Numbered from the stretch's first letter, positions 36,105 through 61,548 are shown. The stretch is DNA of 64,000 nucleotides from an uncultured Flavipsychrobacter sp. (GCA_964481425.1 CAYZTM010000009.1:31452-95451), one strand, 5' to 3'. The notes: generated by a model not told the origin, from the sequence alone. Program-made: numbers and translations.

Positions 36105-36137
36105 ATTTCTTTTCAGCGCGAACGACATCCCCCTAAA

Positions 36138-36410: not shown

Positions 36411-36770
36411 ATGAGACATTTTTATTTTCTGTTTATGGTAATAATAACCGGATGTATTTTTTCAACTGATGAAATAAAATATATAAAAATTAACAACTAC
36501 TACTTGGAAAATACTGGTGAAATAAGAACTCTCTGTATGCGTGAGGATAATTCGAAAACAGAGAAAGTGATAATTGAAAATGTTGACAGTATCGGTTATG
36601 ACAATATGTATATCTATGGATTTGGGAATGGTCAATATTTTATAGTTGATCAAAAAAGCAAGAGCACACGATGGTTCGACAACAAGAGTACTTTGCAGGC
36701 CAGCTTGAATTTAAAAAATGCTCTCATGCAAGAAGCTAAGAAATTACTTGATGATGAAAGCCGCAAATGA
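36411..36770 (+). CDS. hypothetical small lipoprotein (AT-rich islet)
   Basis: 119 aa. The signal peptide has an ITGC lipobox. Composition is AT-rich relative to the flanks. Confidence 0.5.
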   Translation: MRHFYFLFMVIITGCIFSTDEIKYIKINNYYLENTGEIRTLCMREDNSKTEKVIIENVDSIGYDNMYIYGFGNGQYFIVDQKSKSTRWFDNKSTLQASLNLKNALMQEAKKLLDDESRK

Positions 36771-37185
36771 ATATTTAAGTAGCATAGTGTTAAGGTCAGT
36801 ATTTTTTCTGTTACTTATCAATAATTTATATTCCTGTAACAGCGATGACAATATACGGCGAGAAATGGTTGGGGAATATCGATTGTCAGAATGTGAAAAA
36901 GAAAATGGTCCTTGTATAGATTCTCCCGTCCTTATATTGAAGGCCGACAAAAAATTTTCTTTAAATATTAGCAATCGGCGGTTAATTGGTACATGGGATG
37001 TGGTTGAAGGTCAAGACGATCCTTACATATATTTAAATATGCCGGACTCTAACATATATGAACAAGGGATTGTATATGGTAAAAAATACAATGAGGTAAT
37101 CTTACTAAATCCTAGCTTTTTTATGGGCAAGGATTATTTAAAGCTAGGATTTATTAGAACTGGCTCTACCATCTCAAATAACTAA
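36751..37185 (+). CDS. hypothetical small lipoprotein (AT-rich islet)
   Basis: I prefer the start at MMKAANEYL. The hydrophobic leader ends NNLYSC. It overlaps the previous gene by about 20 nt. Confidence 0.45.
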   Translation: MMKAANEYLSSIVLRSVFFLLLINNLYSCNSDDNIRREMVGEYRLSECEKENGPCIDSPVLILKADKKFSLNISNRRLIGTWDVVEGQDDPYIYLNMPDSNIYEQGIVYGKKYNEVILLNPSFFMGKDYLKLGFIRTGSTISNN

Positions 37186-37239
37186 TTGGAATGAATAGTT
37201 TGAGGCGTATGAAAGTCTTGCATTTTTATCTTAATATAG

Positions 37240-37396
37240 ATGACGACTTTTCAACCTCTTGTTTCCTGCATTATGCCCACTGCCAACAGGCAGCGCTTCA
37301 TTCCTACGGCTATAAGTTTGTTCCTGCGGCAGGATTACCCGGAGAAAGAGCTAGTGATAATAGATGATGGCGAGCATTCTGTAGTAGACCAGGAAG
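37240..37396 (+). pseudogene. 5' fragment of a GT2 glycosyltransferase truncated by repeat copy 2
   Basis: MTTFQPLVSCIMPTANRQRFIPTAISLFLRQDYPEKELVIIDDG is a canonical GT2 N-terminus (..S.IMPT.NR......I.S...Q.Y...E.IIIDDGS). The frame then runs straight into the repeat at 37397 and stops at 37570-37572. Confidence 0.75.
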
Positions 37397-37585
37397 CCCC
37401 ATTCGGCTATTCTGAGGCATCCGCACAAGGGGGAAATAAAGGAACATTTCTCAGCTTCAGTGACCTGATGCCGATGAGTCCTCTTGAGGAAAGAGACTTA
37501 TTGGGGGAAGTAAAAGTACTTCGTTTTATTTGTAGATTTAAGTTGGGGAAACTGAAACCCATGAGGTGTTGAAGCTCTATGTGGC
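37397..37585 (+). repeat. 189-bp composite intergenic repeat, copy 2
   Basis: Full-length alignment with 36138-36326. Confidence 0.9.
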
Positions 37586-37725
37586 TGAAGGAAGGAGAAT
37601 GCCGGTTGCAAACCGGACGAATTGCTAAGACACGAGTTTGCTATACCCTGGCTGGGCTACAAACATGCGCCAGACGGATGGATCGAGAGCCTTCCAAGAA
37701 GAAGAAAAAAATAATAAAATGCAAA

Positions 37726-38310
37726 ATGATTAGAGTAATAGTTCTCTTCCTCTTCATTGAAAATATGCTATTTGCGTTGCCCTTATCAGCAAAGGTCGAT
37801 GAGAAATACCTGCTTCAAGCCAAGGTATTGATATTAGCTGACGAAATTAAGCGATATAATATAAACCCAGATAGAGAGTATATACAAAGGTTTCTAGATT
37901 ATAAGATTGTATGGGACACCACAAAATTTACGACTAAAGATTTTCTTGCAAATAACAGCAGGAACACATTGATAACATTTATAAACATTTATGCAGTGCC
38001 CGATACATCGAAAGGTTATTATTGTATGAAGCCTGGAGATAAACAGTGGCGATTCCATGTCGTATTTTTCATGAATGAACAGGCCGAGAAAGCTAATTAC
38101 ATATACCGGTTGTGTATTTTTGGCGACAGAATATATAAACTACATGGGTTTAGTGATAATGATACGAAGGCTATTTTTTGGTACTTATATACCACCTACA
38201 AAGCAAATCATCATAAAACATCGTTCAATTGGTTTTGCAAAAACATTGACAATCTCATCAAAACAGAGAATTGGGATCTTGGAGAATTATGTAATAAGGA
38301 ATTGCATTAA
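37726..38310 (+). CDS. hypothetical secreted protein (AT-rich islet)
   Basis: I prefer the start at MIRVIVLFLFIENMLFALPLSA (a signal peptide). The track N-terminal extension (37579-) lies in or just after the repeat. Confidence 0.5.
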   Translation: MIRVIVLFLFIENMLFALPLSAKVDEKYLLQAKVLILADEIKRYNINPDREYIQRFLDYKIVWDTTKFTTKDFLANNSRNTLITFINIYAVPDTSKGYYCMKPGDKQWRFHVVFFMNEQAEKANYIYRLCIFGDRIYKLHGFSDNDTKAIFWYLYTTYKANHHKTSFNWFCKNIDNLIKTENWDLGELCNKELH

Positions 38311-38323
38311 GAATAACAATCTC

Positions 38324-38374
38324 TAAAAATCCCCCTTCGGCCATTCTGAGGCATCCGCACAAGAGGGAAATAAA
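38324..38374 (+). repeat. partial (5' half) copy 3 of the 189-bp repeat family
   Basis: ctaaaaatcccccttcggccattctgaggcatccgcacaagagggaaataaa matches 36133-36183. Confidence 0.85.
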
Positions 38375-47584: not shown

Positions 47585-47665
<81 letters not shown>

Positions 47666-47757
47666 AACCCTCTTGTTGTCCACTTGGAATTATTGTTGTT
47701 GTCCTAATGTTGGCCGCCTAAGTGCGGGTTAAAAATCATTTACTTCATTTACTGTTG

Positions 47758-48207
47758 TCATTCCAGCCTGCTAAACAATGAAACGACGGCTGTATTCATG
47801 GTCAACGATTGCCCAATAACACACCTGCCCCACCAGTAACAATCCTGCCATGACAAAACTACCTCATTGGTATCTATCATGTATCTTGCTATCCAATAGG
47901 GCACGGCATACCATTCATAAACAGTACGCTCCTTGCCAACATCACACTCCAAGCGTTCAACATCCTTTTGGATAGCTGTATTTCGCCTGTGGTGTAGTTG
48001 GTCAAGTATAGCAGCCTTCCTATCCATAAGCTGGCTGTGTGTACCTATGAATGTGCCTGTTGATAGCTTGACAGTGTGTAGATGTAGATTGTATAAACTA
48101 TTAACCATCTCCATGTGCTTATCTGCATACAGCAGACCATCTACAAGTGCTGTCTGTGGCAGGTTGAAATACCTGCATACAAATTCTTCTATGCTGGCAT
48201 GTGCCAT
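47758..48207 (-). CDS. hypothetical protein (island)
   Basis: The track ORF runs to 48369 (203 aa), but residues 4-21 are encoded by the 53-bp palindromic element at 48308-48360. I therefore prefer the start at MAHASIEEF (48207). No motif was recognised. Confidence 0.45.
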   Translation of the reverse strand: MAHASIEEFVCRYFNLPQTALVDGLLYADKHMEMVNSLYNLHLHTVKLSTGTFIGTHSQLMDRKAAILDQLHHRRNTAIQKDVERLECDVGKERTVYEWYAVPYWIARYMIDTNEVVLSWQDCYWWGRCVIGQSLTMNTAVVSLFSRLE

Positions 48208-48307
48208 TTGCTGTTTGTTTAAGGTGAACAATGTTACCTTAACCTGGGGCACCCAAGTATGGGCTGCGCCTATCAGGTGGTTTATTCTTACGTGAGGTTC
48301 GCTGTCA

Positions 48308-48360
48308 TTCGAAAGTTTTATCAGTACACCTTTACAGGTAGTCCCGACTTTTCTGTCGAA
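48308..48360 (+). repeat. 53-bp imperfect-palindrome element, copy 5 (direct orientation, left arm diverged)
   Basis: The sequence is ttcgaaagttttatc-agtacacctttacaggtagtcc-cgacttttctgtcgaa. The spacer core ACCTTTACAG resembles copy 4 (ACCTATACAG). Confidence 0.75.
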
Positions 48361-48637
48361 TAACATCATCCATAGTGATTAAAAGTGGTCGGCTAACGTG
48401 TTAAATAGCTAACCAACCACAATTAATCAACAGTTCATTTTCGTTTTCAGGGGTCTTTGAGATTTGGGAGAGGCAAGACCTTCTCAAAAGAAATCAGCGT
48501 TGCCATGAGCATCGTGCACATACTCATAGCCCAGGTAGCTGATAACAAAATACAGCACAACTCTCCTGCCATGTAACTGCTAATACGCCCGATATGCCTA
48601 ACCATACCATGCCTTGTAGGTGGGTGCTTTGTAGCAG

Positions 48638-48883
48638 TTAGAAACTGGCAACAATGGTGAAATGAGTGTGGGCGTAGATACCTGTGTTGGTGATAAACAG
48701 CAGTTGATCGTCAGGTGTAGAGGCGACCTCATCCACGTACAAGGAAACGCCTTTTTGCAGGCTCATATAGTCGTCCCTGCAGATTACCCTAAACGGTGTG
48801 TACAACTGTCGTATTCGCCCCATAGTGTTTATTATGAGGATGCTGTTACAATCCCCATAGCTGACTGTGTAGGATTGTTCCAT
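48638..48883 (-). CDS. hypothetical protein (island)
   Basis: I prefer the start at MEQSYTV (48883), which is 5 nt after the upstream stop. No motif was recognised. Confidence 0.45.
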   Translation of the reverse strand: MEQSYTVSYGDCNSILIINTMGRIRQLYTPFRVICRDDYMSLQKGVSLYVDEVASTPDDQLLFITNTGIYAHTHFTIVASF

Positions 48884-48888
48884 AGGGC

Positions 48889-49884
48889 TTAGCTTAAGTA
48901 CCAACAATCGGCTTTACCCTGCACCGCTTGCATGATACTCTTGGTAACGGTGTAAGCGTTTGCGCTCCTGTCAAGGAACAGGTCTATGTACGAACTTTTG
49001 TTAGCCCCTGTAAGAAGGTTATAAAGCCGCCATAGGTTGATACTGCCATCATCATTACAGCGGAAACTCAGGTCGCTGTAATAGTCTTTACAGATGTTGT
49101 TTATCTGTGCATCACCAAACCCGAACTCAGGTATGAGCAACTTAGCACCGTCCGACATGTGGCGATACATACGCGCCCTGCCGATAAGCTGTGCAAACTG
49201 CCGTTCCGTAAGGCTGTACTGTTGGAACTCCTGTAGCTGTTGCGCCATCTGTACAGCGTTAAACTCTGTAAGCAATGAAAGGATAGAGTTGTAGAGTACG
49301 TCAAGATTGTGCACCTTCAGGTCGCTTAGGTAGCCGTCTGTGTGTACGCACAGGTTGCAGCACACGAGGTTGCGGAAACCTATAAAGACCTTGAAACGCT
49401 GCGCACTGCTCTTGCTTATCAGGCTGTCAAGGTTATAGGCTTTGACACCACCCACGGTAAGATTAAGGCGATTGCCCTCAATCTCGTTGGTTATAGAGGG
49501 TATCTCCACACAGAATGCCATCCGTTCATAATACAGGGTCTTTTCGCTGTCAAGAAGGGCATTTGCAGGCTTATTACGAGCCTCTGGGGTTCTGCCCTTG
49601 ATAGGGTGGCTTAGCCTGATAGCAGGCTTTAAAATGGTCTCGCCTGCGAACACATGGCTTATAGCCTGCATAGTGGCATCTATGAACTCCCCGTGTGCAA
49701 TAACTGGCTCATTCTCCTTGATGAACACAGGTATGATATGCCTGTTGTTTATCTCGTCCAGAGTACCGCCTACTGTGTTAGCCTCAATGAAGGGCTTAGA
49801 CGAGGATATCACCTCGATGTTGTCAACGACCTGGGTAAGGGCTTCGCCCACTGCCACAGGTTCTGTAATGGTTTGTACTTCCAT
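48889..49884 (-). CDS. DUF3871/DUF932-like island protein
   Basis: 331 aa from the ATG at 49884, in a TAAAATG junction with the upstream ATPase gene. The RFKVFIGFRNLVCCNLCV block resembles the DUF3871 family seen in Bacteroidota mobile elements. This assignment is from memory. Confidence 0.5.
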   Translation of the reverse strand: MEVQTITEPVAVGEALTQVVDNIEVISSSKPFIEANTVGGTLDEINNRHIIPVFIKENEPVIAHGEFIDATMQAISHVFAGETILKPAIRLSHPIKGRTPEARNKPANALLDSEKTLYYERMAFCVEIPSITNEIEGNRLNLTVGGVKAYNLDSLISKSSAQRFKVFIGFRNLVCCNLCVHTDGYLSDLKVHNLDVLYNSILSLLTEFNAVQMAQQLQEFQQYSLTERQFAQLIGRARMYRHMSDGAKLLIPEFGFGDAQINNICKDYYSDLSFRCNDDGSINLWRLYNLLTGANKSSYIDLFLDRSANAYTVTKSIMQAVQGKADCWYLS

Positions 49885-49885
49885 T

Positions 49886-50734
49886 TTACTGATGGTTTGA
49901 TTGGTGAACAATGTTGTTAAGCTGGTTCTTTCGTGCTGTAAACTCGTGTACAAGTACCTGTTGATACTGTGGATGGGCATAGTAGAGGCTGTTCAGGTCT
50001 TGAACGCTTGGGGCTGTCCTGACACGTTGTAGCATCACCTCATAGGTAACAGGTGGTGGCGCATCTACGCCCGTGTTACACCATTCAGCAATAGCCCTGC
50101 CTGTGTCTGCCGATGGTATAAATTCAGGCTTACTACCGAATAGCTCTGTTCTATCCTTAGATGCCTTTGCCCTGTGCTGCATGTCCATCTCGAACACGAG
50201 TGTAAATTCGTATTCAAGGTTATCCCTCTGCACTCCCTTCATTCCAACCTTTTCAGGGACTTGCTTACCGTTCTTTTCTGATAGCACATATTCCTGCTTG
50301 CTGCGGATAGTGCAGATAAAATGGGCATTGCTTTGGAGTATTTTGTTGACAAAGGCATCATGGCGTGGTAGAACCTTAGCCCAATTCGTGAACGAGTTGC
50401 CTGCAAGAGAGCTATGGTAGTCAATGATGAAGTCCCATTCGTGGCTGGTGCTGTCAATAATGATTACTTCCATGCCAGCATCAAGGCAGATGTTGATGCC
50501 CTCACAGTAACGTTCAGGGCTGTAGGGCGGTTCCAATGATAGGGTTTTGAATGTGCCCAAGTGGGCGTATAGGTCTGCACTGTTATTCTCTGTATCAATA
50601 ACAGCAATCTTGTTCCAGTTGCCACACAGACCATAGGCAATAAGTAAGGCGGACATGGTTTTGCCGCCACCGCTGGCTGATTGAATACCCAGCTTGATTT
50701 TAGCCTTCTTACGGCTGGCTTGTTGTAGTTGCAT
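49886..50734 (-). CDS. Sak4-like RecA-fold AAA ATPase
   Basis: I prefer the start at MQLQQASRK (50734). Walker A is GIQSASGGGKT and Walker B-like is VIIIDSTSHEW. The size of about 280 aa and the layout match phage Sak4-type single-strand annealing ATPases. Confidence 0.65.
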   Translation of the reverse strand: MQLQQASRKKAKIKLGIQSASGGGKTMSALLIAYGLCGNWNKIAVIDTENNSADLYAHLGTFKTLSLEPPYSPERYCEGINICLDAGMEVIIIDSTSHEWDFIIDYHSSLAGNSFTNWAKVLPRHDAFVNKILQSNAHFICTIRSKQEYVLSEKNGKQVPEKVGMKGVQRDNLEYEFTLVFEMDMQHRAKASKDRTELFGSKPEFIPSADTGRAIAEWCNTGVDAPPPVTYEVMLQRVRTAPSVQDLNSLYYAHPQYQQVLVHEFTARKNQLNNIVHQSNHQ

Positions 50735-50805
50735 TGTATTTGTTTTTGGGTGAAGAAATGCGTAGTGGATTGTGTGTACAGGCGGATTGATGTACATTAG
50801 CCTAC

Positions 50806-51219
50806 ATGGACATAAGCGAATTACTCTTATTTGCTGACAACACTTTTTGGGATAGCATCAACGAACGCCACCAACAAAAAGGCGGTGTCTATAAAATCAT
50901 AGCTGTTGCTGATGGCAAGCGTGTACCTATCAATAGGTTTCTTGGCACGGACAGTGAAGGCGTACTGTACATCGGAAAGGCTACCTCATTTTTGGATAGG
51001 GTTTTAGACCTAAAGAAGTCCTTGTCACCTTCGTACAATAGCGGTGCTCACATCTGCGGGAGAAGGTATAAGAGTCTGCCCAAGATTGCCGAACACTATC
51101 CATTTGAAACGCTGCACGTTGACCTGTTGCCATCTGATACACCAGAGTTGTTAGAAGCGCAACTGTTGGATAGCTATAGGAACAACTTCGGTGAAGTGCC
51201 ACCATTGAATGCCATATAG
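50806..51219 (+). CDS. GIY-YIG nuclease-domain protein
   Basis: 137 aa. GGVYKI (GIY), about 20 aa of spacer, VLYIGKA (YIG), a downstream Arg (DRV) and Glu (LLEAQLL) occur in canonical order. Confidence 0.55.
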   Translation: MDISELLLFADNTFWDSINERHQQKGGVYKIIAVADGKRVPINRFLGTDSEGVLYIGKATSFLDRVLDLKKSLSPSYNSGAHICGRRYKSLPKIAEHYPFETLHVDLLPSDTPELLEAQLLDSYRNNFGEVPPLNAI

Positions 51220-51266
51220 ACAGAGCAAAAAGAGGTAAGGGCAGCATATACCACCCTTACCATAGC

Positions 51267-51671
51267 TTAGTTCAGCTTTGCAGGCTGCTCTGTTAGCACC
51301 TCTGTTTCGGCCGCTATTGGCTTCGACAGGTCTGTTCCCTTTGACCTTACGGCAACCATGCGCTTGCCTCCTTCTGGCTGATAATCCCACCTGTAGCCAA
51401 GTTTCAGAACCTCGCCCGTTTCAGGCATGGTGTATTCGTAGGCTTCACATGGCACACGCTCTATCGTCCCTGCCATCTGCCTGCCAACCATACGTGCTGC
51501 GGTGGCTTCATCGAAGGTGCTGCTGATAGTACACCTGCGTACTGTGGCATAGAACCTGCCGCTATTCTGCGACTGCACCATTTCAATATCCCCTTCAAGG
51601 TCTAAGGAGATGTAGTGTTTCTTGTCGCCTTCTTTCTGCTGCCGAAGGCTGTAACCTGTTACTGTAACCAT
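51267..51671 (-). CDS. hypothetical protein (island replication/recombination module)
   Basis: 134-aa ORF in the coding strand context. No motif was recognised. Confidence 0.45.
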   Translation of the reverse strand: MVTVTGYSLRQQKEGDKKHYISLDLEGDIEMVQSQNSGRFYATVRRCTISSTFDEATAARMVGRQMAGTIERVPCEAYEYTMPETGEVLKLGYRWDYQPEGGKRMVAVRSKGTDLSKPIAAETEVLTEQPAKLN

Positions 51672-52084
51672 TTTTAAGTGCTTTTGAAGTGATGAATAAA
51701 CGAACTGTGGGGCGACAAGGGGGGCATACCCCCAACCCAGAATTAAGGACGGGCTGAAAGAAGGGGGTGGTCAACCTTCGTATATGCACATGGGGGGTAC
51801 TCATTGAAACGGGGCTTCCAATTTTGGGGTGGGAAATTTCGATGTAGCTTTTTCGTGCTGGTAGTCTTTCACCAACATAAACGGGCAGAATAATGCTACA
51901 ATATACAGGGGCGGAATTGAGGCTGTTTAAGCCATCCTGTAGCAGCTATCAACAAATGGTGCAGGAAACAGCCCAAATAACGCTATATATATTATATGGG
52001 TGCGCTACAAATAGCTTGACGTGTGAGGGCACAAAAGGGGCTATTTGAGCACTCCTAATCTCACGTGAGCACGAGCGTCTTTCG

Positions 52085-52137
52085 TTCGACAAAAAAGTCA
52101 AACAACCCATATGGATGCTCTCGACTTTTCTTTCGAG
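52085..52137 (-). repeat. 53-bp imperfect-palindrome element, copy 1 (inverted orientation)
   Basis: The plus strand reads ttcgacaaaaaagtc-N22-cgacttttctttcgag. Its reverse complement, CTCGAAAGAAAAGTCG-N22-GACTTTTTTGTCGAA, matches copies 2-4. It lies 4 nt beyond the helicase stop. Confidence 0.85.
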
Positions 52138-52140
52138 TGG

Positions 52141-54519
52141 TTACAGCAATCTTACTTCAAGAAGGTCGGGTGATATAGTGCGCTCAACGCTGCCCTCTAT
52201 CAAATAATACTCGTCCTTTAGCTTGTTGTGCATACGCTTCTTCATCGTCACGTTGGTAAAGCACTTCTCAAACTCCTTGTAGATGATTGCTTTTTTCGCT
52301 GCCATATCGGGTATGTCTGCCACTGATGGCATGAAGGGGAAAACCCTATCCTTTAATAGCCTGTCAGCGCCATTGAGTGCTGCAATAACGGTTTCACATT
52401 CTGCAATAAAGCTGTCCTGTAGCTGTGTATGTGCATCCCTGTGTATAAGGTTCTCCGACTTGCTGTTTTGTACGGCTTGCTTCGTCATGAAGGTAATAAA
52501 GCCTTTACGTAGCTGGTCGAGTTTATGGAACTGTAAGACACGGTCATTCTCTATGTCCTCAATGTCCACACTGCCTGCAAGCCCAGCGCAGGAAAGTATG
52601 TAGTCCTCTTTAGTCAGCCCTGTAACCTTGCCTTTAGTAGCCATTGTTACATAGGCATCTATTAGGCTCTGGACGTATTGCGGGGTGTTCTTTATAGCAC
52701 CTGCATTGAGTTGTCTGTGGTTGGCAATGAACTGCACCTTTTCACTTACCCCAGGTTCTCCATCTGCACCAGAGCTAACGGTATCTAATGACCTTAGCAA
52801 TAGCTCAACTGCGGCTGGCAGGTCGAGTTTTGCCGCTTGGGTTACTGTTTCATCGGTCAACATAGTTCCGAACGTTGTCTTTGCGGTGTCTTTTGTCAAC
52901 TGCACACTCCTCCTGCGAATAGAGGTATAGGTTATTTCAGTGAGTGTAGCATTGCAGAACTGTCCATAGATTGCGCCCCAAAGGACATAAGCGTTTAGTT
53001 CCTTACCATAGGAATAATGGTTAGCCAGCAACTTCTTTTGGCTGTCCTCTACAAGGTAGTTGCTGAACGATGGGTAGCTGGAACCTAACTGTAGATTGCC
53101 TTGTGTCTGAATGTCGTTCAGTGCCGCTATCTGTTCGCTTACACGGTTTTTCAACCGATTGTATGTGGTCTGTAGTTCAGTATAGAAGCTGTTTTGGCGT
53201 ATGTATTCCTCTGTATCTGTGTTGTCGGTTATATCCTCTGGCAGATAAGGCAGGCTGTTTTCCCTGTTGATAATCGTTGAGGGCTTTAGCATGAGGACAT
53301 GCACATGCCCAATACGCCTTATCCTCGCCATTGACTGAATAATTGAAGGTAGCCCATCGCTGAAAATGCCATACTTAGGGTCGTTGCCGCCAAGACAAGG
53401 GAGTATGCAGATGAACACTGAATCTGACTGCTCTATATCAACGCCTGTCTTAAATGCTGTGCCTAAATTGTTCCTGTTCTGTATAAACTCATTGTCGTTA
53501 TCACTTGTAATCAGATTAGGGTTGAGTAGCTTGACGGCATTTATCAAGTCGGTATTATCAGGGCTATTTGCGGCATCCAGCAACCCGTTTGCCATGCTCT
53601 TATGCCCTGTAAGTATGTTGATCTGTTTGTCCTTATTGTCATCTATGATTTTGCGTACCACATAGTCAAGCGGCATCAGGTTTTGTCCACTGTATGCCCT
53701 CTCAAATAGGTGCAGGTGCAATGACACAGGCTGGTCTATTTTAAGTCTTGGGGTCTCATAAACTGTAATGTTGCCGCCTGTTAGCGCTCCAATATGTTGG
53801 ACAGCAGGAATTGCCGCAGGTGTGAAGGTAGCACTGCTAACATAAGCCTTATGCACCACACCCTTCCACCTCATCAGGTTAGGCACAAACTCGTCAGTGA
53901 AGTTATGAATTGACTCGTGTATCTCATCAAAGAACATCACAACCTTCTTTTCAACTCTATCCTCGTCATAGCAGCTATTCAGAACACCACGTAGAAATTC
54001 CTGCTTGATTTTTAGCTGGTCGTATGCCTCTCCCCCAGGGTTCTGCAACAGGCAGTTTATAGTCATTACATGAATGCTATGGTCAACATGCGGCATGAAA
54101 TTGAAGTGATACCCAGGTTGCTTTGCCGCTTCCATTGTTTGCCCTAAGTGCTCATAGTTGAATGCTTCTAATCCGCGCTTGGTTAGGTTTGCCCAATCTT
54201 TCTCAACAAGTTTCTTAAAAGGACTTAGCACTAATACTATGTAACCTTCCTTTGCATACTTTGCTATCAGGTCGTAGCATGCACGAGTTTTGCCCTTACC
54301 CACCTGAATATTGAACACCACCGTTTCAGTTTTGGAATGGTCAATGTTGCCCATGTGGTTGTTCACATCAAGGAACTCGTTGCTCCTTAACGGTATCTGG
54401 TTCATATCTACGGTGAACCCATTAGCCTGCAATACATCAGTTGGGATTTTGAAGTAGTCTATCTCTTGTTCAGCCAATTGGAAATCCAACTGGCTTGTTG
54501 TATAGGAAATATTGCTCAT
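52141..54519 (-). CDS. superfamily-2 (DEAD/DEAH-like) helicase with large uncharacterised C-terminal half
   Basis: 792 aa. Walker A is NIQVGKGKTR, motif II is MFFDEIHES, and a later SSATFTP resembles motif III (SAT). About 350 C-terminal residues carry no recognised motif. Confidence 0.7.
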   Translation of the reverse strand: MSNISYTTSQLDFQLAEQEIDYFKIPTDVLQANGFTVDMNQIPLRSNEFLDVNNHMGNIDHSKTETVVFNIQVGKGKTRACYDLIAKYAKEGYIVLVLSPFKKLVEKDWANLTKRGLEAFNYEHLGQTMEAAKQPGYHFNFMPHVDHSIHVMTINCLLQNPGGEAYDQLKIKQEFLRGVLNSCYDEDRVEKKVVMFFDEIHESIHNFTDEFVPNLMRWKGVVHKAYVSSATFTPAAIPAVQHIGALTGGNITVYETPRLKIDQPVSLHLHLFERAYSGQNLMPLDYVVRKIIDDNKDKQINILTGHKSMANGLLDAANSPDNTDLINAVKLLNPNLITSDNDNEFIQNRNNLGTAFKTGVDIEQSDSVFICILPCLGGNDPKYGIFSDGLPSIIQSMARIRRIGHVHVLMLKPSTIINRENSLPYLPEDITDNTDTEEYIRQNSFYTELQTTYNRLKNRVSEQIAALNDIQTQGNLQLGSSYPSFSNYLVEDSQKKLLANHYSYGKELNAYVLWGAIYGQFCNATLTEITYTSIRRRSVQLTKDTAKTTFGTMLTDETVTQAAKLDLPAAVELLLRSLDTVSSGADGEPGVSEKVQFIANHRQLNAGAIKNTPQYVQSLIDAYVTMATKGKVTGLTKEDYILSCAGLAGSVDIEDIENDRVLQFHKLDQLRKGFITFMTKQAVQNSKSENLIHRDAHTQLQDSFIAECETVIAALNGADRLLKDRVFPFMPSVADIPDMAAKKAIIYKEFEKCFTNVTMKKRMHNKLKDEYYLIEGSVERTISPDLLEVRLL

Positions 54520-54538
54520 GTTTCTTGTTTCTGGACGA

Positions 54539-54546
54539 CAAAGGTA
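54539..54546 (-). promoter_or_regulatory. candidate -7 box (TACCTTTG) for the helicase gene
   Basis: The reverse complement of caaaggta is TACCTTTG (TAnnTTTG), about 20 nt upstream of the ATG at 54519 and directly downstream of 53-bp element copy 2. Confidence 0.35.
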
Positions 54547-54564
54547 CGAATATGACGTCCACTG

Positions 54565-54617
54565 TTCGAAAGAAAAGTCGGAGATACCTATGAAGCTATG
54601 GTGACTTTTTTATCGAA
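54565..54617 (+). repeat. 53-bp imperfect-palindrome element, copy 2
   Basis: The sequence is TTCGAAAGAAAAGTCG-gagatacctatgaagctatggt-GACTTTTTTATCGAA. Confidence 0.9.
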
Positions 54618-54687
54618 TGGTTTTGAAGAATGTCTACAAAGCACCATACTTGGATATTGAGAAATTATGGTGCAGGTAGATTCATCT

Positions 54688-56880
54688 TCATTCATTATGA
54701 TGTCTTTTTCTACTCCTGAAAATATTCTTTAAAAAATTACCAGTTTTATTTACTGCATCCGCTTGATCTACCAATATGTCCATTAACGATGCATCAGGAT
54801 GTTGAATGTCTTCCATTTTTACACCGTGTTCCAATTGCTTGGGATAGAGCAATATAAAACTAATATTGTTAAAGTGTTTCGACAAATAATAATGCATTTT
54901 ATCCAATACTGAGTTATGAGAAATATGCCCTCTACGAGATGAAATCACCACAAATAAATCGTCAGCCCTAAGTATCCCTGTGAAAATAAGAAATTCGTCC
55001 CAAATACTAAAAGTATTAAATGTAACATTTATCAGGAGGGGAACTGCCTGATTAATCTGTCGAAGTTTAATAATGGTTTCGTCGCTTGCATAAATAATAA
55101 TGGGCATGTCAGTTGCTTTGGCGATAGTCATTATCTTTCTATACCAATGTAAAAAGCCTGGTTCCATTTCAGCAGATTGAGTAACTACCACTACAATACG
55201 ATTTAGGGTATTCAAAGGTTGAACTGGATTGTAAAAGTAAATTGTCTCAGAAATTGCAGTAAGCACGTTGTCTTCAATGGCTCCAAAAAACTCTTTCCTG
55301 TTATTGTTTCGATGAACGCCTATTAAAACATCCGATATGTTATGTTCTTTTATTGAATAAATAATGCCATTGCTAATATTAATATCATAGCGGTTAACTG
55401 GGATAATTTTGTTTTCCGTTGCTGCTGCATGCATCAATGCTTTGTTCATCATTTTGCCACTTGCTGCAATAGGTTTTCCGTCACCACCGTCATCGCTCAC
55501 AATATTCAATGCATATACAGGTATTCTACTTTTTTGATGCTTCAATAATAATCCCATATCGACAAGGTCTGTAACAGTATCTGGGTGCTCAATAAATATG
55601 AGTAGCTTTTCAGTAGGTTCACTATTTTCCGTTTCGGATGTTTTCGCTTCTTCATCCAATGCGGCGATATTTCGGGCGGCTCTTTCCACAACGAATGAGC
55701 CCAGAGTACAACTAAAAAGAATAAGTAAAATTGTTCCGTTGAGTACATCTTCATCAAGCAATCTAATCGGCTCTCCCGAAGCACTTTGTCCAATAATGAT
55801 ATTGTAACCTACAAGAATAATAGCAAGTGTAGCAGCAGCATGGGACGTGCTAAGACCAAATATTATTCTCCCTTCATCTTTGGTAAGTTTGAAGACATAT
55901 TTTGTTATCATTGCGGCTCCGTATTTTGTTGCAATAGCAACTGTGATGATTACTCCTGCAACTTTAAGCGCACCCAATCCTTTTACCAATACGGTAACAT
56001 CAACAAGCATTCCCACTCCAATAAGGAAAAAAGGTATAAACAAGGCGTTTCCTACAAAGTCTATTCTGTTCATCAAAGGCGAGAAGTGAGGTATGAACCT
56101 GTTGAGCACCAATCCAGCAAAGAACGCGCCAATAATTGGCTCAAGGCCTGCCGTCTCAGCAAGAAATGCTGCAAGGAATACAATAGCAAGCACAAAAATA
56201 TATTGTGAAACATTATCGCTAAATCGCTTGAAAAACCATCGGGCAATAATTGGGAAGATGAAAAATACAATGGATACAAAAACTACTGTCGAACTACCGA
56301 ACCTAACCCAATAGCTTGTGGAAATGTCTCCCTTTGCCATACCTGCAATTGCAGCAAGGATCAGCAGAGCTAAAATGTCAGTTATCATGGTGCTCCCTAC
56401 GGTCAGCGTAACCGCCTTGTTTCGTGCTACTCCATACTTGCTGGCTATCGGATATGCTATTAAGGTATGAGTTGAAAACATACTGGCAAGGAGTATTGAC
56501 GACATTATGCCATATCCAAGAACATAGTAGCTCGCCAATGCACCCACAGTTAGCGGTAAGGAAAATGTCATTAATCCCAAAAAAGCAACCTTGCCTCTGT
56601 TTTTTTTAAATTCGTTGAGGTCAATTTCTAATCCAGCAAGAAACATGATATAAAGTAGGCCTACCGTTCCAAATAGAATAATGCTGCTATCACGCCTAAG
56701 AAGATTAAGCCCATGTGGGCCGATGACAACCCCCGCTATAATGAGCCCTATCAAATGAGGTATTTTGATTTTGTTGAGCAAGATCGGGGCAAAAAGAATG
56801 ATGAATAATACAAGTGAAAAAATTATCACTGGATTACTCAATGGTAGGTTAAGACTAATTTCACTCTTCAATATTATCAT
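54688..56880 (-). CDS. cation:proton antiporter (CPA family) fused to C-terminal USP-like domains
   Basis: 730 aa with about 12 TM segments of Na+/H+ exchanger type (..GLEIDL.., ..GPHGL..). A soluble C-terminal half of about 300 aa follows, with two alpha/beta blocks. The gene is visibly more AT-rich than its neighbours. Confidence 0.75.
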   Translation of the reverse strand: MIILKSEISLNLPLSNPVIIFSLVLFIILFAPILLNKIKIPHLIGLIIAGVVIGPHGLNLLRRDSSIILFGTVGLLYIMFLAGLEIDLNEFKKNRGKVAFLGLMTFSLPLTVGALASYYVLGYGIMSSILLASMFSTHTLIAYPIASKYGVARNKAVTLTVGSTMITDILALLILAAIAGMAKGDISTSYWVRFGSSTVVFVSIVFFIFPIIARWFFKRFSDNVSQYIFVLAIVFLAAFLAETAGLEPIIGAFFAGLVLNRFIPHFSPLMNRIDFVGNALFIPFFLIGVGMLVDVTVLVKGLGALKVAGVIITVAIATKYGAAMITKYVFKLTKDEGRIIFGLSTSHAAATLAIILVGYNIIIGQSASGEPIRLLDEDVLNGTILLILFSCTLGSFVVERAARNIAALDEEAKTSETENSEPTEKLLIFIEHPDTVTDLVDMGLLLKHQKSRIPVYALNIVSDDGGDGKPIAASGKMMNKALMHAAATENKIIPVNRYDINISNGIIYSIKEHNISDVLIGVHRNNNRKEFFGAIEDNVLTAISETIYFYNPVQPLNTLNRIVVVVTQSAEMEPGFLHWYRKIMTIAKATDMPIIIYASDETIIKLRQINQAVPLLINVTFNTFSIWDEFLIFTGILRADDLFVVISSRRGHISHNSVLDKMHYYLSKHFNNISFILLYPKQLEHGVKMEDIQHPDASLMDILVDQADAVNKTGNFLKNIFRSRKRHHNE

Positions 56881-57118
56881 ATTTAATTTTATCTAAGTGA
56901 TATTCTTCAATGCATGCACATATAGATTTTCCAGCCCCAAGTTGCAATAATAATGTTTAGTCATTTAGCGAATATATAAAAATAAGTTAAACCGAATGGG
57001 AGGGCATTAAATACTCATGCCAAAGTAAGTAAGGACAGCAAGATTTAAAGTTTGAGCTTGGTGTGGTTTGCATGCCACTTACTTTTCATTTCTCCTTATT
57101 GGAGTAGGCGCAATATTG

Positions 57119-57171
57119 TTCGAAAGAAAAGTCGATTAGACCTACAAGGTTGTGTAGAGTTTTTTATCGAG
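57119..57171 (+). repeat. 53-bp imperfect-palindrome element, copy 3
   Basis: The sequence is TTCGAAAGAAAAGTCG-attagacctacaaggttgtgta-GAGTTTTTTATCGAG. Confidence 0.9.
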
Positions 57172-57321
57172 TTTTTCTGCGATTTTTCGAAGCTGTTTGA
57201 GTTAGCGTATAAAAAAAAGCCAGCCTGAGAACAGACCAGCCCCTATAAACCCTATCACCATGAAAACCTTATAAAGATAGCTTACAGATTTGAAATATCA
57301 AAGCCTACTCATCGTTCATCA

Positions 57322-57960
57322 TCATACATCAACGCCTGTAAGTCTCGCTTTCGCAATGAGCGCCTCTATTAACTCTATGGTCATTACATCCTTAAAGGTG
57401 TTGAGCCAAATGGATGCGTTTATCAGTACTTCAGTTCTGTTCCGCTTAAACATACTCTCCAATTCAGCAGGTGTCAGTTTGGGGTACTCAATAGGGTTCA
57501 ACACTTCATCAGGTGTAGGGTTATAGTTATCTGGAAAGTCCTCATCTGCACCGTAAAGGCTAAAAGCCTGTTCCCATGCTAAGCTATCGAGGGTATGGAT
57601 AAGCTGGTGTATGTCGAGCGGTATCATTTTGTTTAGGTCAGGGTTCTGATAGTCGCTTAGCTCAACATGCCCAATATCTAAGCCATCATAGTAGCCTATA
57701 AACGGCTGCCAAATCCCCACCTTCCACATTGCCCTTAGCTCATCCGTCCACTCCAAATTCTGGTTAAAGGATAGCCCTATAGACGGCTTGCATATCTGCT
57801 CTGTGTCCTGTATGTAGATGGGATAATATGCCTCGCCCATGATTAGGTGAGGCATGTATTTCTTCACTTGTTCGGTGGTAAACGGATAGTGCAGGGAGAT
57901 ATACCTTATGGCGAAGTCAAGGTTACTGGCAAAGAAGTCGTAGAATGGATTGCTGTTCAT
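57322..57960 (-). CDS. hypothetical cytoplasmic protein (4th gene of island operon)
   Basis: 212 aa with no signal peptide or TM segment and no recognised motif. It starts 20 nt after the upstream stop. Confidence 0.5.
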   Translation of the reverse strand: MNSNPFYDFFASNLDFAIRYISLHYPFTTEQVKKYMPHLIMGEAYYPIYIQDTEQICKPSIGLSFNQNLEWTDELRAMWKVGIWQPFIGYYDGLDIGHVELSDYQNPDLNKMIPLDIHQLIHTLDSLAWEQAFSLYGADEDFPDNYNPTPDEVLNPIEYPKLTPAELESMFKRNRTEVLINASIWLNTFKDVMTIELIEALIAKARLTGVDV

Positions 57961-57980
57961 GTTGTGCCGAGATGAGGTAG

Positions 57981-58490
57981 CTAAAAGTACGTGTCTTGTA
58001 AGTAGCGGTCAATGGTATTTGCACCTTCCATCAGATAAGGATACATCTCCATGTACTTCCCCAGGTCATGGCTTACGCCGACCTCCTTACTAAGAGGTTT
58101 AATGAACAGTAGATACGTGATGATGCCCCCATAGTAAGTAGAGCCTTCCTCAAATATCTTGTCCAGTTCTGCCGTGTACAGTTTCAAGCGGTTCTCCAAG
58201 AACTTCACTGTTCCTTCCTTATCCAGTTTCAGGTAGCCATCCCGTGCAATGTGAATTAGCAACTCTCCATAGAGTGGTGATAAAACGGGCTGCACATCCT
58301 CCAAGCTGTCATAGGCAAGCCTTTTGCATACTGCGGTGAATAGTATGTTACACTCGATTTGCGAACTCATGTTTGACTTCATTGAGGTATGGCTCATGAC
58401 CGTGGTAGTGCAGCCATTTATCACCTTGTATATCTCCCTCTGTGGTTGATATGGTCGCAAATGATTAAAGAAGTCTTTCAATGCACCCAT
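57981..58490 (-). CDS. hypothetical cytoplasmic protein (3rd gene of island operon)
   Basis: I prefer the start at MGALKDFF (58490), 5 nt after the upstream stop, giving 169 aa. No motif was recognised. Confidence 0.5.
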   Translation of the reverse strand: MGALKDFFNHLRPYQPQREIYKVINGCTTTVMSHTSMKSNMSSQIECNILFTAVCKRLAYDSLEDVQPVLSPLYGELLIHIARDGYLKLDKEGTVKFLENRLKLYTAELDKIFEEGSTYYGGIITYLLFIKPLSKEVGVSHDLGKYMEMYPYLMEGANTIDRYLQDTYF

Positions 58491-58495
58491 AGTAG

Positions 58496-59110
58496 TTAGC
58501 GTATATTGGTAATCTTGAAACTGTTTAGAACTTGTGCATACAGCGGCTTCCACAGGGCTTCATCCTTCTGCCTGTATGACAAAATGAGCTGGTGCATCCT
58601 ATCATTGTTATGGAAGGTGTACATGACTACATAGACGGGTGGATTACTGCCTACCTGACGTACATATGAAGTCTTAAGAGCCTTGCAGCCGTTAACCATT
58701 TCTACGGTAGTGCCATTCCATGCAAGTAGTTTATCTGCACCCCTGTAATCGCCTTCGTTGGCTTTTCTGAACTGCTCATTGACCTGCTGTAGCTCTGTAG
58801 GCGACACATTCCATGTGTTCATTTTCAGGTACGCACCAGCCTTCTTTACGAAGGTGTTGATAATGACCTGTGCATAGGTTGTAGATGCCTTCTGTTTAAA
58901 GGTCATTGTCTTTGGTGTGGTAACTGACGGATAGGCACTGCTTGCGTAGTTGTGCGCATCGGTGTTATAGGTGTCGTCCGCCTTTGCCATATTGGACGGG
59001 ATAGATATTGTGCCTACGTCTGTTATGGAATAGCTGTGCATTTGTGGCTTCTGTGCGCTGGCATGTACGGTTACCACCAATAAACATGCTGTAATAATTG
59101 CTCGTATCAT
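58496..59110 (-). CDS. hypothetical secreted protein (2nd gene of island operon)
   Basis: The start at MIRAIITACLLVVTVHASAQ (59110) is a signal peptide. Its ATG overlaps the upstream TGA (GTATGA). Confidence 0.55.
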   Translation of the reverse strand: MIRAIITACLLVVTVHASAQKPQMHSYSITDVGTISIPSNMAKADDTYNTDAHNYASSAYPSVTTPKTMTFKQKASTTYAQVIINTFVKKAGAYLKMNTWNVSPTELQQVNEQFRKANEGDYRGADKLLAWNGTTVEMVNGCKALKTSYVRQVGSNPPVYVVMYTFHNNDRMHQLILSYRQKDEALWKPLYAQVLNSFKITNIR

Positions 59111-59370
59111 ACCTGCTCCTTCGGTTTTGACGGTGATACAAAGAAGCCAATTATGAACACCACAAGCCCGATACCACTGCCAAAAAGCAGGCTGGCAGGG
59201 TACATCTGCCAATAGAACTTATCGGGGTCAAGCTGTGCTTGCAATGTGTGCTGCTTGCTAATACCTTCACCGCCCATTTGAGCGCCCTTGCATACCCTGT
59301 CGTTTATGTAGTATGCAGCAATGAAGGTTACTATGAGTGCTATAATCAGAGGTGTTGTTGCTCTTTTCAT
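59107..59370 (-). CDS. small two-TM membrane protein (1st gene of island operon)
   Basis: 87 aa. The two hydrophobic helices are PLIIALIVTFIAAYYI and ASLLFGSGIGLVVFIIGFFV. Confidence 0.5.
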   Translation of the reverse strand: MKRATTPLIIALIVTFIAAYYINDRVCKGAQMGGEGISKQHTLQAQLDPDKFYWQMYPASLLFGSGIGLVVFIIGFFVSPSKPKEQV

Positions 59371-59416
59371 GTACTGTACGTTTTGAGATGTGAAAGTATA
59401 AAAGATTTCTGTACTT

Positions 59417-59434
59417 CATAGCAAATTTGCTATG
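59417..59434. promoter_or_regulatory. 18-bp perfect palindrome, a candidate operator in the divergent XRE/operon control region
   Basis: CATAGCAAATTTGCTATG is a perfect inverted repeat. It sits between the operon start (59370) and the XRE coding region, and each half contains AAATTTG, which resembles a -7 box. Confidence 0.5.
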
Positions 59435-59705
59435 GTGTAAACTACGAGTAAATACTCCCTTTGTGGGAGTGGCGAAACGGACTTACTACAAGGATGAGCA
59501 AGGGGTAATTGCCTTCGGTAACAAACTCCGTGAGATACGCCTTAAAAAGGGCTATTCACAGGAACGGCTTGCCAACGAAGCGGGGCTACCACCTTCCCAA
59601 ATCAGCAGGATAGAGACAGGAGTAATAAATACCTCCCTGTCTCATATCTGCTTGATTGCTCGTGTCCTTAAAGTGAAGCCAAAGGAGTTGATGGATTTCG
59701 ATTAG
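59427..59705 (+). CDS. XRE-family helix-turn-helix transcriptional regulator
   Basis: The HTH_3 pattern is LREIRLKKGYSQERLANEAGLPPSQISRIETG. No ATG lies upstream of the HTH. The track start is a TTG inside the palindrome, and the GTGs at 59463 or 59469 are more plausible starts. Confidence 0.7.
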   Translation: MLWCKLRVNTPFVGVAKRTYYKDEQGVIAFGNKLREIRLKKGYSQERLANEAGLPPSQISRIETGVINTSLSHICLIARVLKVKPKELMDFD

Positions 59706-59735
59706 TCTATTAGTCATGGTATAGCCTGCTGACCA

Positions 59736-59788
59736 TTCGAAAGAAAAGTCCTACCCACCTATACAGTATGTCCGACTTTTTTGTCGAA
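59736..59788 (+). repeat. 53-bp imperfect-palindrome element, copy 4
   Basis: The sequence is TTCGAAAGAAAAGTC-ctacccacctatacagtatgtcc-GACTTTTTTGTCGAA. Confidence 0.9.
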
Positions 59789-59964
59789 TGACTGCATAGG
59801 AAATAGGTGCAGGAGTTACCCCACACCTATTAGCCTTGACCCAGGTTCTTCCTTATTACCTACAGTGAATAAACTTGAACGGGTTGCAGATGAAATCCCA
59901 CAGTCCGATGAGGAATATTACCATGAGGATACTAAGGATGGTACGAATGATTTTTACAATGGTT

Positions 59965-61206
59965 TTAATCATCTCTCTGTTTTTGAAGGTTAACACTTTG
60001 GTTGGTTAGTTTGGCATCAAGGGCTGCCATGTCTCCGCTAATCTTAGTGTCCACAACCTTGCTATAAATCTGTGTGGTCTTGATGTTCGTGTGCCCAAGC
60101 ATTTTACTCACTGTCTCTATCGGCACTCCGTTGGAAAGTGTGATACTTGTAGCGAACGAGTGGCGTGCAATGTGGAACGTCAGCTTCTTGGTGATGCCGC
60201 ATACATCTGCAATCTCTTTCAAGTAAGCATTCATCTTTTGGTTTGAAGGAACTGGAAACACGTAGGCATTATCGGGGTTAGCTTTGGCTCTATATCGCTC
60301 AATTAGAGCCAGAGCTTGCGGCAGCAAGGGAATAGGTACCCTTGTATTCGTCTTAGTCCTGTAGGTCTGAATCCATAGCTTACCGTCAATACCCTTAGTA
60401 ATTTCCCCATGTCTTAGTTTCTTCACATCGGCATACGCCAATCCAGTGTAGCAACTGAACACGAATACATCTCTTACTTGGGTTAGTCGTGCGCTGACAA
60501 GTTCCTTAGACTGTATCAAGGTTATTTCTTCCTGCGTAAGGCACTCACGTATGACAGGCTGTAAGGTGCATTTGAAGGCTTTAAACGGGTCATGTTTCAG
60601 CCACTCCATGCCGATCCCGTAGTTAATTACCCGTTTCAAGAACTGGATGTACTTAATGGCTGTATTGTGCCCAATGTGTTCGTCCGCTTTCAAGTACAAC
60701 TCAAAGCCCATCAGGAAGCCTTTGTTAAGCTGGTCAAGGGCTATATCGCTTGCCTTGTACTGCTTACGCAGGAAGCCCTTCACTTTGAGCAATAGTGTCT
60801 CATACTTGGTATAGGTTGCTTTGCGGACTTCAATACCAACCCTACGCTTCACATAAGCGTTATGGTGATGCAGGAGCCTAATAAGATACTCTGCCTTCTC
60901 CGTGGGATTTACAAGCTTTCCCTTGATGAGTTGCGAGGTGATAGGTAAGTCCTGTTTCAAGCATTCAGCGTAGATGTCTGTCGCTTTCGCCCGATAGGTT
61001 GATAGCAACTTGTTCGCATTAAACGCCTCCTCGCTCTTACCCTTGATAACAGCCTTCGCGCTATCCCAATTTTGCTTAGTAGTTGTGATACCCAGGTTTA
61101 CTGCCTCTCGCTTGCCAGCAATGGTGATGCGCATGTAAATAGGGTACTTGTCATTTGAGCCTCGTTGGGTGTTGATGTAAAAGGAAATGTGTAATCGGTT
61201 GTCCAT
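59965..61206 (-). CDS. tyrosine-type site-specific integrase
   Basis: An N-terminal arm-binding-like domain and SAM-like core are followed by the catalytic region: ..TFHIARHSFAT.. (HxxR), GHTNIKTTQIYSKV (H..Y). I prefer the ATG at 61206 (MDNRLHISFY) over the GTG at 61224. Confidence 0.9.
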   Translation of the reverse strand: MDNRLHISFYINTQRGSNDKYPIYMRITIAGKREAVNLGITTTKQNWDSAKAVIKGKSEEAFNANKLLSTYRAKATDIYAECLKQDLPITSQLIKGKLVNPTEKAEYLIRLLHHHNAYVKRRVGIEVRKATYTKYETLLLKVKGFLRKQYKASDIALDQLNKGFLMGFELYLKADEHIGHNTAIKYIQFLKRVINYGIGMEWLKHDPFKAFKCTLQPVIRECLTQEEITLIQSKELVSARLTQVRDVFVFSCYTGLAYADVKKLRHGEITKGIDGKLWIQTYRTKTNTRVPIPLLPQALALIERYRAKANPDNAYVFPVPSNQKMNAYLKEIADVCGITKKLTFHIARHSFATSITLSNGVPIETVSKMLGHTNIKTTQIYSKVVDTKISGDMAALDAKLTNQSVNLQKQRDD

Positions 61207-61430
61207 TTGCTCTGTTTTGAGCACTTGGAAGCCGCATCATTCAGCAACAATGTATACGTGGTTGATTGACAGAGGCTAATGAGGTCTTTCTTGTTGTCCG
61301 CCTCTCGTTTGGTCTGTTGTCCTCATGTTGTCCGCTTGGCTATTCAGGCTCGAATGGGCTCGAATTATCGTGCAAAGAGCGTCATCCTCTGAAAGCCTTT
61401 ACTGACAACCATATAAGGATTCCGTAAATG

Positions 61431-61453
61431 AAAAAGAGCCACATAAGTGGCTC
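61431..61453 (-). terminator. island-borne terminator following the reconstituted tRNA-Ser
   Basis: The gagccac-ataa-gtggctc hairpin has a plus-strand A5 run, which is a T-run on the minus strand. Confidence 0.6.
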
Positions 61454-61469
61454 ATTATCAAGTAGTTAT

Positions 61470-61548
61470 GCGGAGAGAGAGGGATTCGAACCCCCGGACC
61501 TTTTACAGTCAACGGTTTTCAAGACCGCCGCATTCGACCACTCTGCCA
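61470..61548 (-). repeat. integrase-proximal att direct repeat (inside the functional tRNA-Ser)
   Basis: 78 of 79 nt are identical to 47587-47665. Confidence 0.9.

Follow-up and report, generated by a model that had tools for sequence, protein, structure and literature searches.

OriS of herpes simplex virus consists of a strong Box 1 and a weaker, inverted Box 2 on either side of an AT-rich spacer; it is bound by two dimers of the origin-binding protein (OBP) through its C-terminal domain, and several intergenic copies are present per genome (PMC12543377). A similar layout is found in a 64,000-nt stretch of DNA from an uncultured Flavipsychrobacter sp. (GCA_964481425.1 CAYZTM010000009.1:31452-95451), hereafter the window, in which positions are counted. 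Five intergenic copies of a 53-bp element, referred to as e1 to e5, lie there within an island integrated in a tRNA-Ser gene. In this element, two inverted, unequal boxes surround a spacer with a TATA-type centre, and the box centres are 38 bp apart, as compared with ~40 bp in OriS (counted from the printed sequence, PMC12543377). Two of the copies flank the gene of a superfamily 2 (SF2) helicase, referred to as HEL, whose predicted structure has the herpes simplex virus 1 (HSV-1) protein UL9 as its best structural match.

Integrative islands provide another comparison. In the Staphylococcus aureus pathogenicity islands (SaPIs) and the phage-inducible chromosomal islands (PICIs), the replication origin (ori) lies next to rep, and in P4 both ori and crr are bound by the alpha protein. 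The window island resembles these elements in its integration in a tRNA gene or similar site, in the cis site immediately 3′ of a candidate initiator helicase gene and in the variation of the site sequence by lineage; as in P4, a second site lies kilobases away. It differs from them in that their sites are short direct iterons, not 15-bp inverted boxes, and in that their helicases belong to other families; neither a helper-phage relationship nor capsid-related genes were seen in the window island.

Anatomy and conservation of the 53-bp element

The copies and the helicase gene are located as follows.

48308-48360, minus strand: e1; left box 48346-48360 (TTCGACAGAAAAGTC), core ACCTGT, degenerate right arm (GATAAAACTTTCGAA)
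52085-52137, minus strand: e2; starts 3 nt past the HEL stop codon; left box 52123-52137
52141-54519, minus strand: HEL, 792-aa SF2 helicase (ResIII/DEAD in the N-terminal half, by Pfam), flanked by e2 and e3
54565-54617, plus strand: e3; 46 nt upstream of the HEL start codon; left box 54565-54579
57119-57171, plus strand: e4; between a four-gene operon and a low-GC antiporter gene
59736-59788, plus strand: e5; between the convergent XRE gene (end 59705) and integrase gene (end 59965)

An earlier note on this DNA, made from the sequence alone, had placed five 53-bp copies at these coordinates, and all five are present there. The degenerate pattern TCGAMAGAAAAGTC-N6-AYC-N14-GA-N8-TCGA matches exactly these five copies in the 64-kb window, where shuffled sequences give an expectation of 0.00. 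The absence of copies from the window outside the island, previously judged by eye, was confirmed by pattern, single-arm and nhmmer scans: a single arm with up to two mismatches occurs solely inside the five copies, the profile of the element family finds no weaker copy in the window, and there are no additional half-sites elsewhere in the island. Outside the window, scans with the exact pattern gave zero matches in one genome per species from 185,579 species, in the JGI metagenomes and in IMG/VR, and no Rfam family fits the elements. Two repeat families occur outside the island, namely three copies of 48-192-nt units at ~36.0-38.4 kb (36035-38374) and a 168-nt tandem coding repeat (10149-10861); neither is related to the elements.

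The copies were also said to lie at the boundaries of transcription units, and all five are indeed intergenic. Copy e1 has the p81 and 52-aa open reading frames (ORFs) on one side and a 149-aa gene on the other. A 203-aa ORF that overlaps it (47758-48369) is probably over-extended; with the ATG at 48207 as the start of the conserved gene (149 aa), e1 is intergenic. The strands listed above are assigned because the nhmmer profile scores each copy far higher in one orientation than in the other (49.8 vs 8.9 bits for e3; 40.3 vs 13.2 bits for e1). Copy 2, the only one previously called inverted, is on the minus strand, but copy 1 too fits the consensus only on that strand. The pairing previously given for the arms, with 13 Watson-Crick pairs, one G-T pair and a conserved A-A mismatch, holds for e3; in e4, however, the arm pair at G13 is also broken (GAGTTT), the mismatch is A-G in e2 and e5, and e1 pairs far less.

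Thirteen copies of the window lineage could be compared, including those in related islands retrieved by a protein-guided search (designated by L-numbers). They share a 15-bp left box, TTCGAAAGAAAAGTC, in which 13 of the 15 columns are invariant, a 23-bp spacer with a fixed CTATA-AG core and a conserved A-C-C-T-A-T, and a weaker inverted box. This right arm is variable, with forms such as GATAAAACTTTCGAA, GATTTTGGGGATCGA and GATGAATTTGTCGAC. Pair counting among the 13 copies reveals no covariation, the lost pairs being plain unpaired cells. Between lineages, by contrast, the dyad symmetry is kept: six pairs have changed on both sides, a value reached in none of 500 shuffles and far above that of slid controls. 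Co-evolution of a dimeric binder with its site would be expected to preserve such symmetry. As for folding, whole elements have z-scores of -2 to -3.4 and the inner spacers a slight excess of pairing (mean z about -0.9), and no difference was found between the sense and antisense strands (39 elements, folding with RNA parameters; Wilcoxon p = 0.67). The folded single strand proposed in the earlier note is thus not borne out, given the lack of both covariation and strand bias. Since the sequence is kept within the lineage, the symmetry is kept between lineages and strand bias is missing, what these comparisons point to is duplex DNA whose sequence is read by a symmetric binder, rather than a fold of RNA or single-stranded DNA.

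The spacer of e2 differs markedly between the window (52100-52122) and a closely related island, L044 (5151-5173): 12 of the 23 positions are identical, while the arms are identical and the flanks ~94% identical. An inversion between the arms was checked as the origin of this difference, and it is not an inversion. The spacers of e1, e3 and e4 differ between the same two islands by 1-3 bases.

Association of the element with the helicase gene

The relation to HEL was examined in 31 HEL genes (lineages) with enough downstream sequence, by searching for strict inverted repeats, defined as 14-nt arms with up to two mismatches and an overall length of 44-62 bp. In 16 of the 31 lineages, such a repeat, typically a palindrome of ~50 bp with a CTATA-AG core, begins in the interval from -5 to +70 nt around the HEL stop codon, where 1.8% per site is expected from the background density (p = 2.7e-20), and several further lineages have a post-HEL repeat at three mismatches. 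The arms of these repeats vary by lineage (e.g., GGACAGAATTT, GTCCACTTTTT, GACACTTTTTTGTAA and TCGACAAAAAAAT), and their centre is mostly a CTTATATAG-like (YTATATAR-like) motif. A comparison of three islands (L019, L043 and L020) gives 87-100% identity for the backbone proteins and 60-70% for HEL; the most divergent part of HEL is its last ~120 aa (45-58%), next to arms that differ. A cis site directly 3′ of HEL, with arms that change together with the HEL C-terminus, is the arrangement of a satellite-type ori.

Immediately upstream of the HEL start codon, a different inverted repeat is found in several lineages, for example GTATATTAGGTGC...GCACCTAATATAC in Chitinophaga. It is kept although the helicases are less than 40% identical, and it occurs at the following positions.

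L006: 9925-9971
L007: 9940-9986
L011: 9887-9936
L038: 9749-9795
L016: 9958-10003

The orthologous copies in related islands show which positions are old. L044 is ~94% identical to the window over 47636-57265 and carries orthologues of e1-e4, and L003 and L004 are 77-79% identical to the window and carry orthologues of e5, e3 and e2. The orthologues of e1 lie at 9286-9338 in L044 and at 13856-13908 in L046, where this is the sole copy kept; those of e2 lie at 8788-8840 in L003 and at 5136-5188 in L044, and that of e5 at 3061-3113 in L003. Further away, the nhmmer profile of the window-type element gives weak matches (E 0.0067-2.8) after HEL in L024, L026 and L005 (E 0.12-2.8 at this position) and after p81 in L026 (22214-22267); in the alignment, the left box and the core are common to them and the window element, although the HEL proteins of L024 and L026 are just 36-37% identical to that of the window. 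Because these weak homologues sit at matching places in distant islands, the positions of e2 and e1 are old, and on these alignments the site past the HEL stop codon and that at the far end are judged to be the ancestral ones in this lineage group. The copies e3-e5 are additional ones, present in the closest relatives of the window.

The AlphaFold model of HEL (pLDDT 88) was compared with known structures. The best match in the PDB is HSV-1 UL9 on OriS, marginally ahead of generic SF2 helicases. Herpesvirus and giant-virus proteins annotated as replication origin-binding make up nine of the 26 top matches in BFVD, where a helicase of a Tenacibaculum phage likewise has a high rank (E-values of 1e-12 to 1e-10). 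No relative of HEL was found in the records of isolated phages; a DUF3871 relative is carried by just two unannotated faecal contigs.

Taken together, the position beside HEL and the conserved sequence favour a reading that the earlier note had listed as an alternative, namely operator or iteron sites for an island protein. In the form that we tentatively prefer, while rating it at somewhat less than an even chance, the elements would be origin- or iteron-like binding sites for HEL, comparable to OriS. They would act as double-stranded-DNA cis sites of the island's own replication or recombination module: dimers of HEL would occupy the two inverted boxes and distort the spacer, leading to the start of replication or to some other organisation of the island DNA. 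The anatomy of the elements, their pattern of conservation, their positional tie to HEL and the structural class of HEL are direct results; we infer both that HEL is the binder and that the binding serves replication.

Several observations weigh against this assignment or set the elements apart from OriS. The TM-scores between HEL and UL9 are ~0.3, and the PDB E-values are near those of generic SF2 helicases; HEL has no match to Pfam Herpes_ori_bp and no sequence match in the PDB, so that no homology to the OriS/UL9 system is seen at the sequence level. The spacer in the window lineage is not purely A+T, as only its core is AT-rich; five dispersed origin-like sites in 14 kb are unusual; and the carrier is a tRNA-integrated element of a bacterial host. 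Elements also exist without HEL: neither L046 nor L001 has HEL, yet the former keeps an e1-type copy and the latter an element of another type. The element after HEL and that after P134, a conserved backbone protein, have different arms in some Flavobacterium islands, and one protein may therefore not read both. Finally, the conserved box points toward HEL in all five window copies, as judged by profile orientation, but the copies in L021 are not directed toward HEL; because the chance expectation is 1/16 and L021 does not repeat the pattern, we give this polarity little weight.

Other explanations of the elements

Features needed for weighing the other explanations are as follows.

51234-51261, minus strand: canonical intrinsic terminator immediately after P134 (terminator scan)
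54539-54546, minus strand: -7-like box TACCTTTG, with e3 ~20 nt on its upstream side and the HEL ATG 19 nt on its downstream side; also kept in L044 and L003
57215-57244, minus strand: canonical intrinsic terminator that belongs to the four-gene operon and separates it from e4

The elements could instead be operators at which a different DNA-binding protein of the island, for example the XRE repressor, acts as a global regulator and coordinates or insulates the transcription units, in the manner of the KorB operators of IncP plasmids. Like the preferred HEL-binding reading, this would account for a sequence that is kept where pairing is not and for dispersed, exclusively intergenic copies, one per unit, and the island does contain an XRE gene. 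In addition, e3 lies ~20 nt upstream of the conserved -7-like box TACCTTTG of HEL and thereby overlaps the -33 region of the HEL promoter. However, no promoter is expected at e2, which adjoins a stop codon, or at e5, which has convergent genes on its two sides, and the divergent promoter region of the XRE gene and the operon (59371-59470) carries no copy. A box spacing of 38 bp is atypical for an XRE dimer, and across the family it is the 3′ end of HEL, rather than promoters, to which the elements are most strongly linked. We therefore consider operators unlikely. Another explanation, in which hairpins act at the level of RNA or a single strand, as weak bidirectional terminators or as transcript-stabilising hairpins of the 3′-untranslated region that have been copied around the island, appears to us quite unlikely. 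It agrees with the arms of the window lineage, which give an A-run, a hairpin and a T-run both ways, with the location of each copy 3′ of a gene end (between convergent genes in the case of e5) with the whole-element folding scores and with the slight extra pairing of the spacers. The elements share with the repetitive extragenic palindromic (REP) sequences, the bacterial interspersed mosaic elements (BIMEs) and bidirectional terminators the form of intergenic palindromes of ~35-55 bp just past stop codons, in which A/T runs flank a hairpin. Nevertheless, canonical terminators stand directly beside e4, before the e3 orthologue of L003 (6230-6275) and, in three Flavobacterium islands, at a conserved position after the post-HEL element and before the Sak4 gene, which weakens the idea of dedicated terminators put forward earlier; the scan calls none of the elements themselves as intrinsic terminators. 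The folding shows no preference for the sense strand; within the lineage, lost pairs are not compensated, and little pairing is left in e1. Many lineages have the T-run in their 5′ arm, where its polarity does not suit a terminator, and a terminator would not need a conserved box and core. As for REP sequences, BIMEs and similar dispersed repeats, which have many copies across the host genome, no copy of the element occurs in the 50 kb of flanking chromosome in the window and no exact match in the 185,579 reference genomes, and there is no RAYT gene. Since HEL in the window has no terminator behind it other than e2, this copy may still have a secondary terminator role.

The leading idea of the earlier note was a site for cassette recombination similar to attC, and pdif sites, the modules of which are known in Acinetobacter, can be considered with it: a recombinase would swap modules that carry one copy per cassette. 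The elements resemble such sites in being imperfect palindromes between modules, with conserved ends and a variable centre, and one "gene plus element" indel exists, since the window and L044 have the low-GC antiporter together with e4, whereas L003 lacks both and shows one element at this joint. One block of homology to L003 has its start precisely at the outer boundary of e3 (window 54620), and the divergence of the e2 spacer (12/23 identical between islands that are 94% identical overall) would also suit exchange. Yet this edge is the only one of four homology breakpoints that lies at an element; other breakpoints and insertions are at 58495 (inside the operon), 51235 (past the P134 terminator) and 51220-51272. 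The cargo slot of the family, whether it extends from DUF3871 or from HEL to P134, lacks an arrangement with one flanking element for each cassette; across the family, the elements occupy fixed backbone positions, after HEL and after P134, and do not surround the variable cargo. Only one of the arms is conserved, the orientation of the copies is mixed, and there is neither covariation nor strand bias that would indicate a folded substrate. The sole recombinase is the tRNA-targeting integrase, which has apparent arm sites of its own (TGTTGTCC, see below); in agreement with the earlier remark that its position does not match integrons, it is a tyrosine integrase with Arm-DNA-bind_5, and no integron-type integrase (IntI) with its attI site and Pc promoter is present. 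The 23-bp spacer is also unlike the core sites of tyrosine recombinases, and a core of 6-8 bp of the XerC/D type is missing. We accordingly regard cassette recombination as highly improbable.

Two more assignments of the element were tried and rejected. As a promoter, of either the sigma-70-like -35/-10 type or the Bacteroidota -33/-7 type (-7 consensus TAnnTTTG), it is accompanied by a good -7 box near e3 alone. As an arm site of the integrase, the ACCTAT core or "TACTACCTATAC" was considered; "TACTACCTATAC" is too common to tell, and the probable arm repeats are those of the TGTTGTCC type.

The island and its family

The island itself (~47666-61470, 13.9 kb) is inserted in the tRNA-Ser gene, and its remaining landmarks are the following.

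47587-47665, strand not assigned: attL, 79-nt direct repeat of tRNA-Ser(tga); partner copy at 61470-61548
51267-51671, minus strand: P134, conserved 134-aa backbone protein; modelled as an OB-like beta barrel with a disordered tail
59965-61206, minus strand: tyrosine integrase with Arm-DNA-bind_5, SAM_5 and Phage_integrase domains

The window contains six TGTTGTCC octamers, of which five are within 180 bp of the island ends, at 47674 and 47697 (by attL; cluster 47674-47704) and at 61292, 61315 and 61326 (from the integrase start to attR; cluster 61292-61333). From their placement, they are probably the arm-type sites of the Arm-DNA-bind_5 integrase. Pfam identified AAA_24, DUF3871, the ResIII/DEAD helicase (HEL), a Na/H exchanger and an XRE protein in the island. 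Of the previous labels "Sak4" and "GIY-YIG", the block was recovered by Pfam as AAA_24 and DUF3871, but its 137-aa ORF has no Pfam match. The antiporter block was rightly described as AT-rich, its GC content being 0.34-0.42 vs ~0.45-0.50 in the rest of the island. The window cargo consists of the membrane four-gene operon and the antiporter, which has a 330-aa C-terminal extension; it has no PADLOC match. More broadly, PHROGs, NCBIfam and PADLOC assign no function to P134, DUF3871, p81 or the cargo, a literature search on DUF3871 yielded nothing useful, and exact-protein look-ups returned no recorded identical match for the window integrase, the DUF3871 protein, HEL or P0121. Because its model shows an OB-like barrel, P134 is possibly similar to single-stranded-DNA-binding (SSB) proteins; the top matches of its fold search are all SSB proteins, at a level that is not significant (E ~0.2).

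The region just past the P134 terminator, at 51220-51272, is a recurrent hotspot for breakpoints and insertions and contains no element. At this place L044 has an additional 97-aa gene (6069-6362), and L003 carries entirely different genes beyond 9695, that is, from the P134-terminator point on (an nSTAND3-like gene and one for a 646-aa protein).

The family was drawn from ORF clustering of ~45 loci retrieved with the helicase profile. Its common backbone runs from the integrase through HEL, AAA_24/Sak4, DUF3871 and variable cargo to P134 (112-152 aa), and often continues with a RadC-like protein, a ~400-aa protein and an XRE protein. Members were found in Chitinophagia, Flavobacteriia and Bacteroidia, beside tRNA-Ser, -Met, -Asn or -Asp genes, and the family is widespread and undescribed in Bacteroidota. 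Between two and five copies with the same arms are present per island in L016, L015, L021, L041, L003 and the window. In L001, the integrase is 90% identical and occupies the same tRNA-Ser/PMSR site as in the window; this island, which has HEPN/GmrSD cargo and lacks HEL, carries a single element with arms entirely different from those of the window. The cargo of the relatives includes type I and type III restriction, GmrSD, HEPN, OLD-type ATPase, nSTAND3 and TcmP-like genes; L001, L003, L026, L041, L048 and L049 are rich in such defence-type cargo, in which the TcmP-like genes occur as a pair.

Other repeats were noticed in these islands. In L045 and L046, HEL is replaced by a BT4734_N/DUF3987 protein; both islands lack copies of the e2 and e3 types, which speaks for a link of these copies to HEL, and instead carry another dispersed repeat, TTTGCATACTTTG-like. 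This second repeat family (TTTGCATACTTTG / TTCGCATAGTTTG), often in inverted clusters, occupies intergenic joints of related islands and is commonest in these two. It could be the cis site of the alternative replication protein, or a promoter cluster. Close to their p81-distal end, several related islands share a further type of inverted or direct repeat (TATACTACCTATAC / GTATAGGTAGTATA). The sites of the two types are listed here.

L045, second repeat family: 2151-2209, 6486-6550
L046, second repeat family: 2634-2694, 4200, 5167-5235, 6343, 13146
L003, second repeat family: 5077-5133
L048, TATACTACCTATAC / GTATAGGTAGTATA repeat: 12792-12853
L049, TATACTACCTATAC / GTATAGGTAGTATA repeat: 201-251
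L026, TATACTACCTATAC / GTATAGGTAGTATA repeat: 22386-22454
L008, TATACTACCTATAC / GTATAGGTAGTATA repeat: 12928-12992

Near the far end of L003 (12702-12740), a fused half-element is found, in which TTCGACAAAAAAGT is directly followed by TCGAAAG. It adjoins a GTTGTCCC arm-like repeat and a short stretch similar to a tRNA 3′ end, and may be what a deletion or a recombination event at an element has left behind.

The elements described here are real and, within the 64-kb window, island-specific, and they are members of an undescribed, widespread class. Initiator-binding palindromes beside a rep-type helicase gene are already a known kind of site; it is the present class that is undescribed. The impression that the copies delimit modules could arise because they occupy the intergenic joints of a conserved backbone, with variable cargo inserted beside these joints. 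The wider proposition, that a large family of tRNA-integrating islands of Bacteroidota, many of them with defence cargo, replicate via a UL9-like helicase and dispersed OriS-like palindromes that double as joints for cargo modules, is to be regarded as a long shot. In practical terms, the box-core-box signature by the helicase stop codon is a simple marker with which such islands and their cargo slots may be found and delimited. If HEL binds the elements, they would constitute the origin system of a widespread and unstudied class of Bacteroidota islands, and this system would be a bacterial counterpart of the OBP/OriS initiation of herpesviruses.

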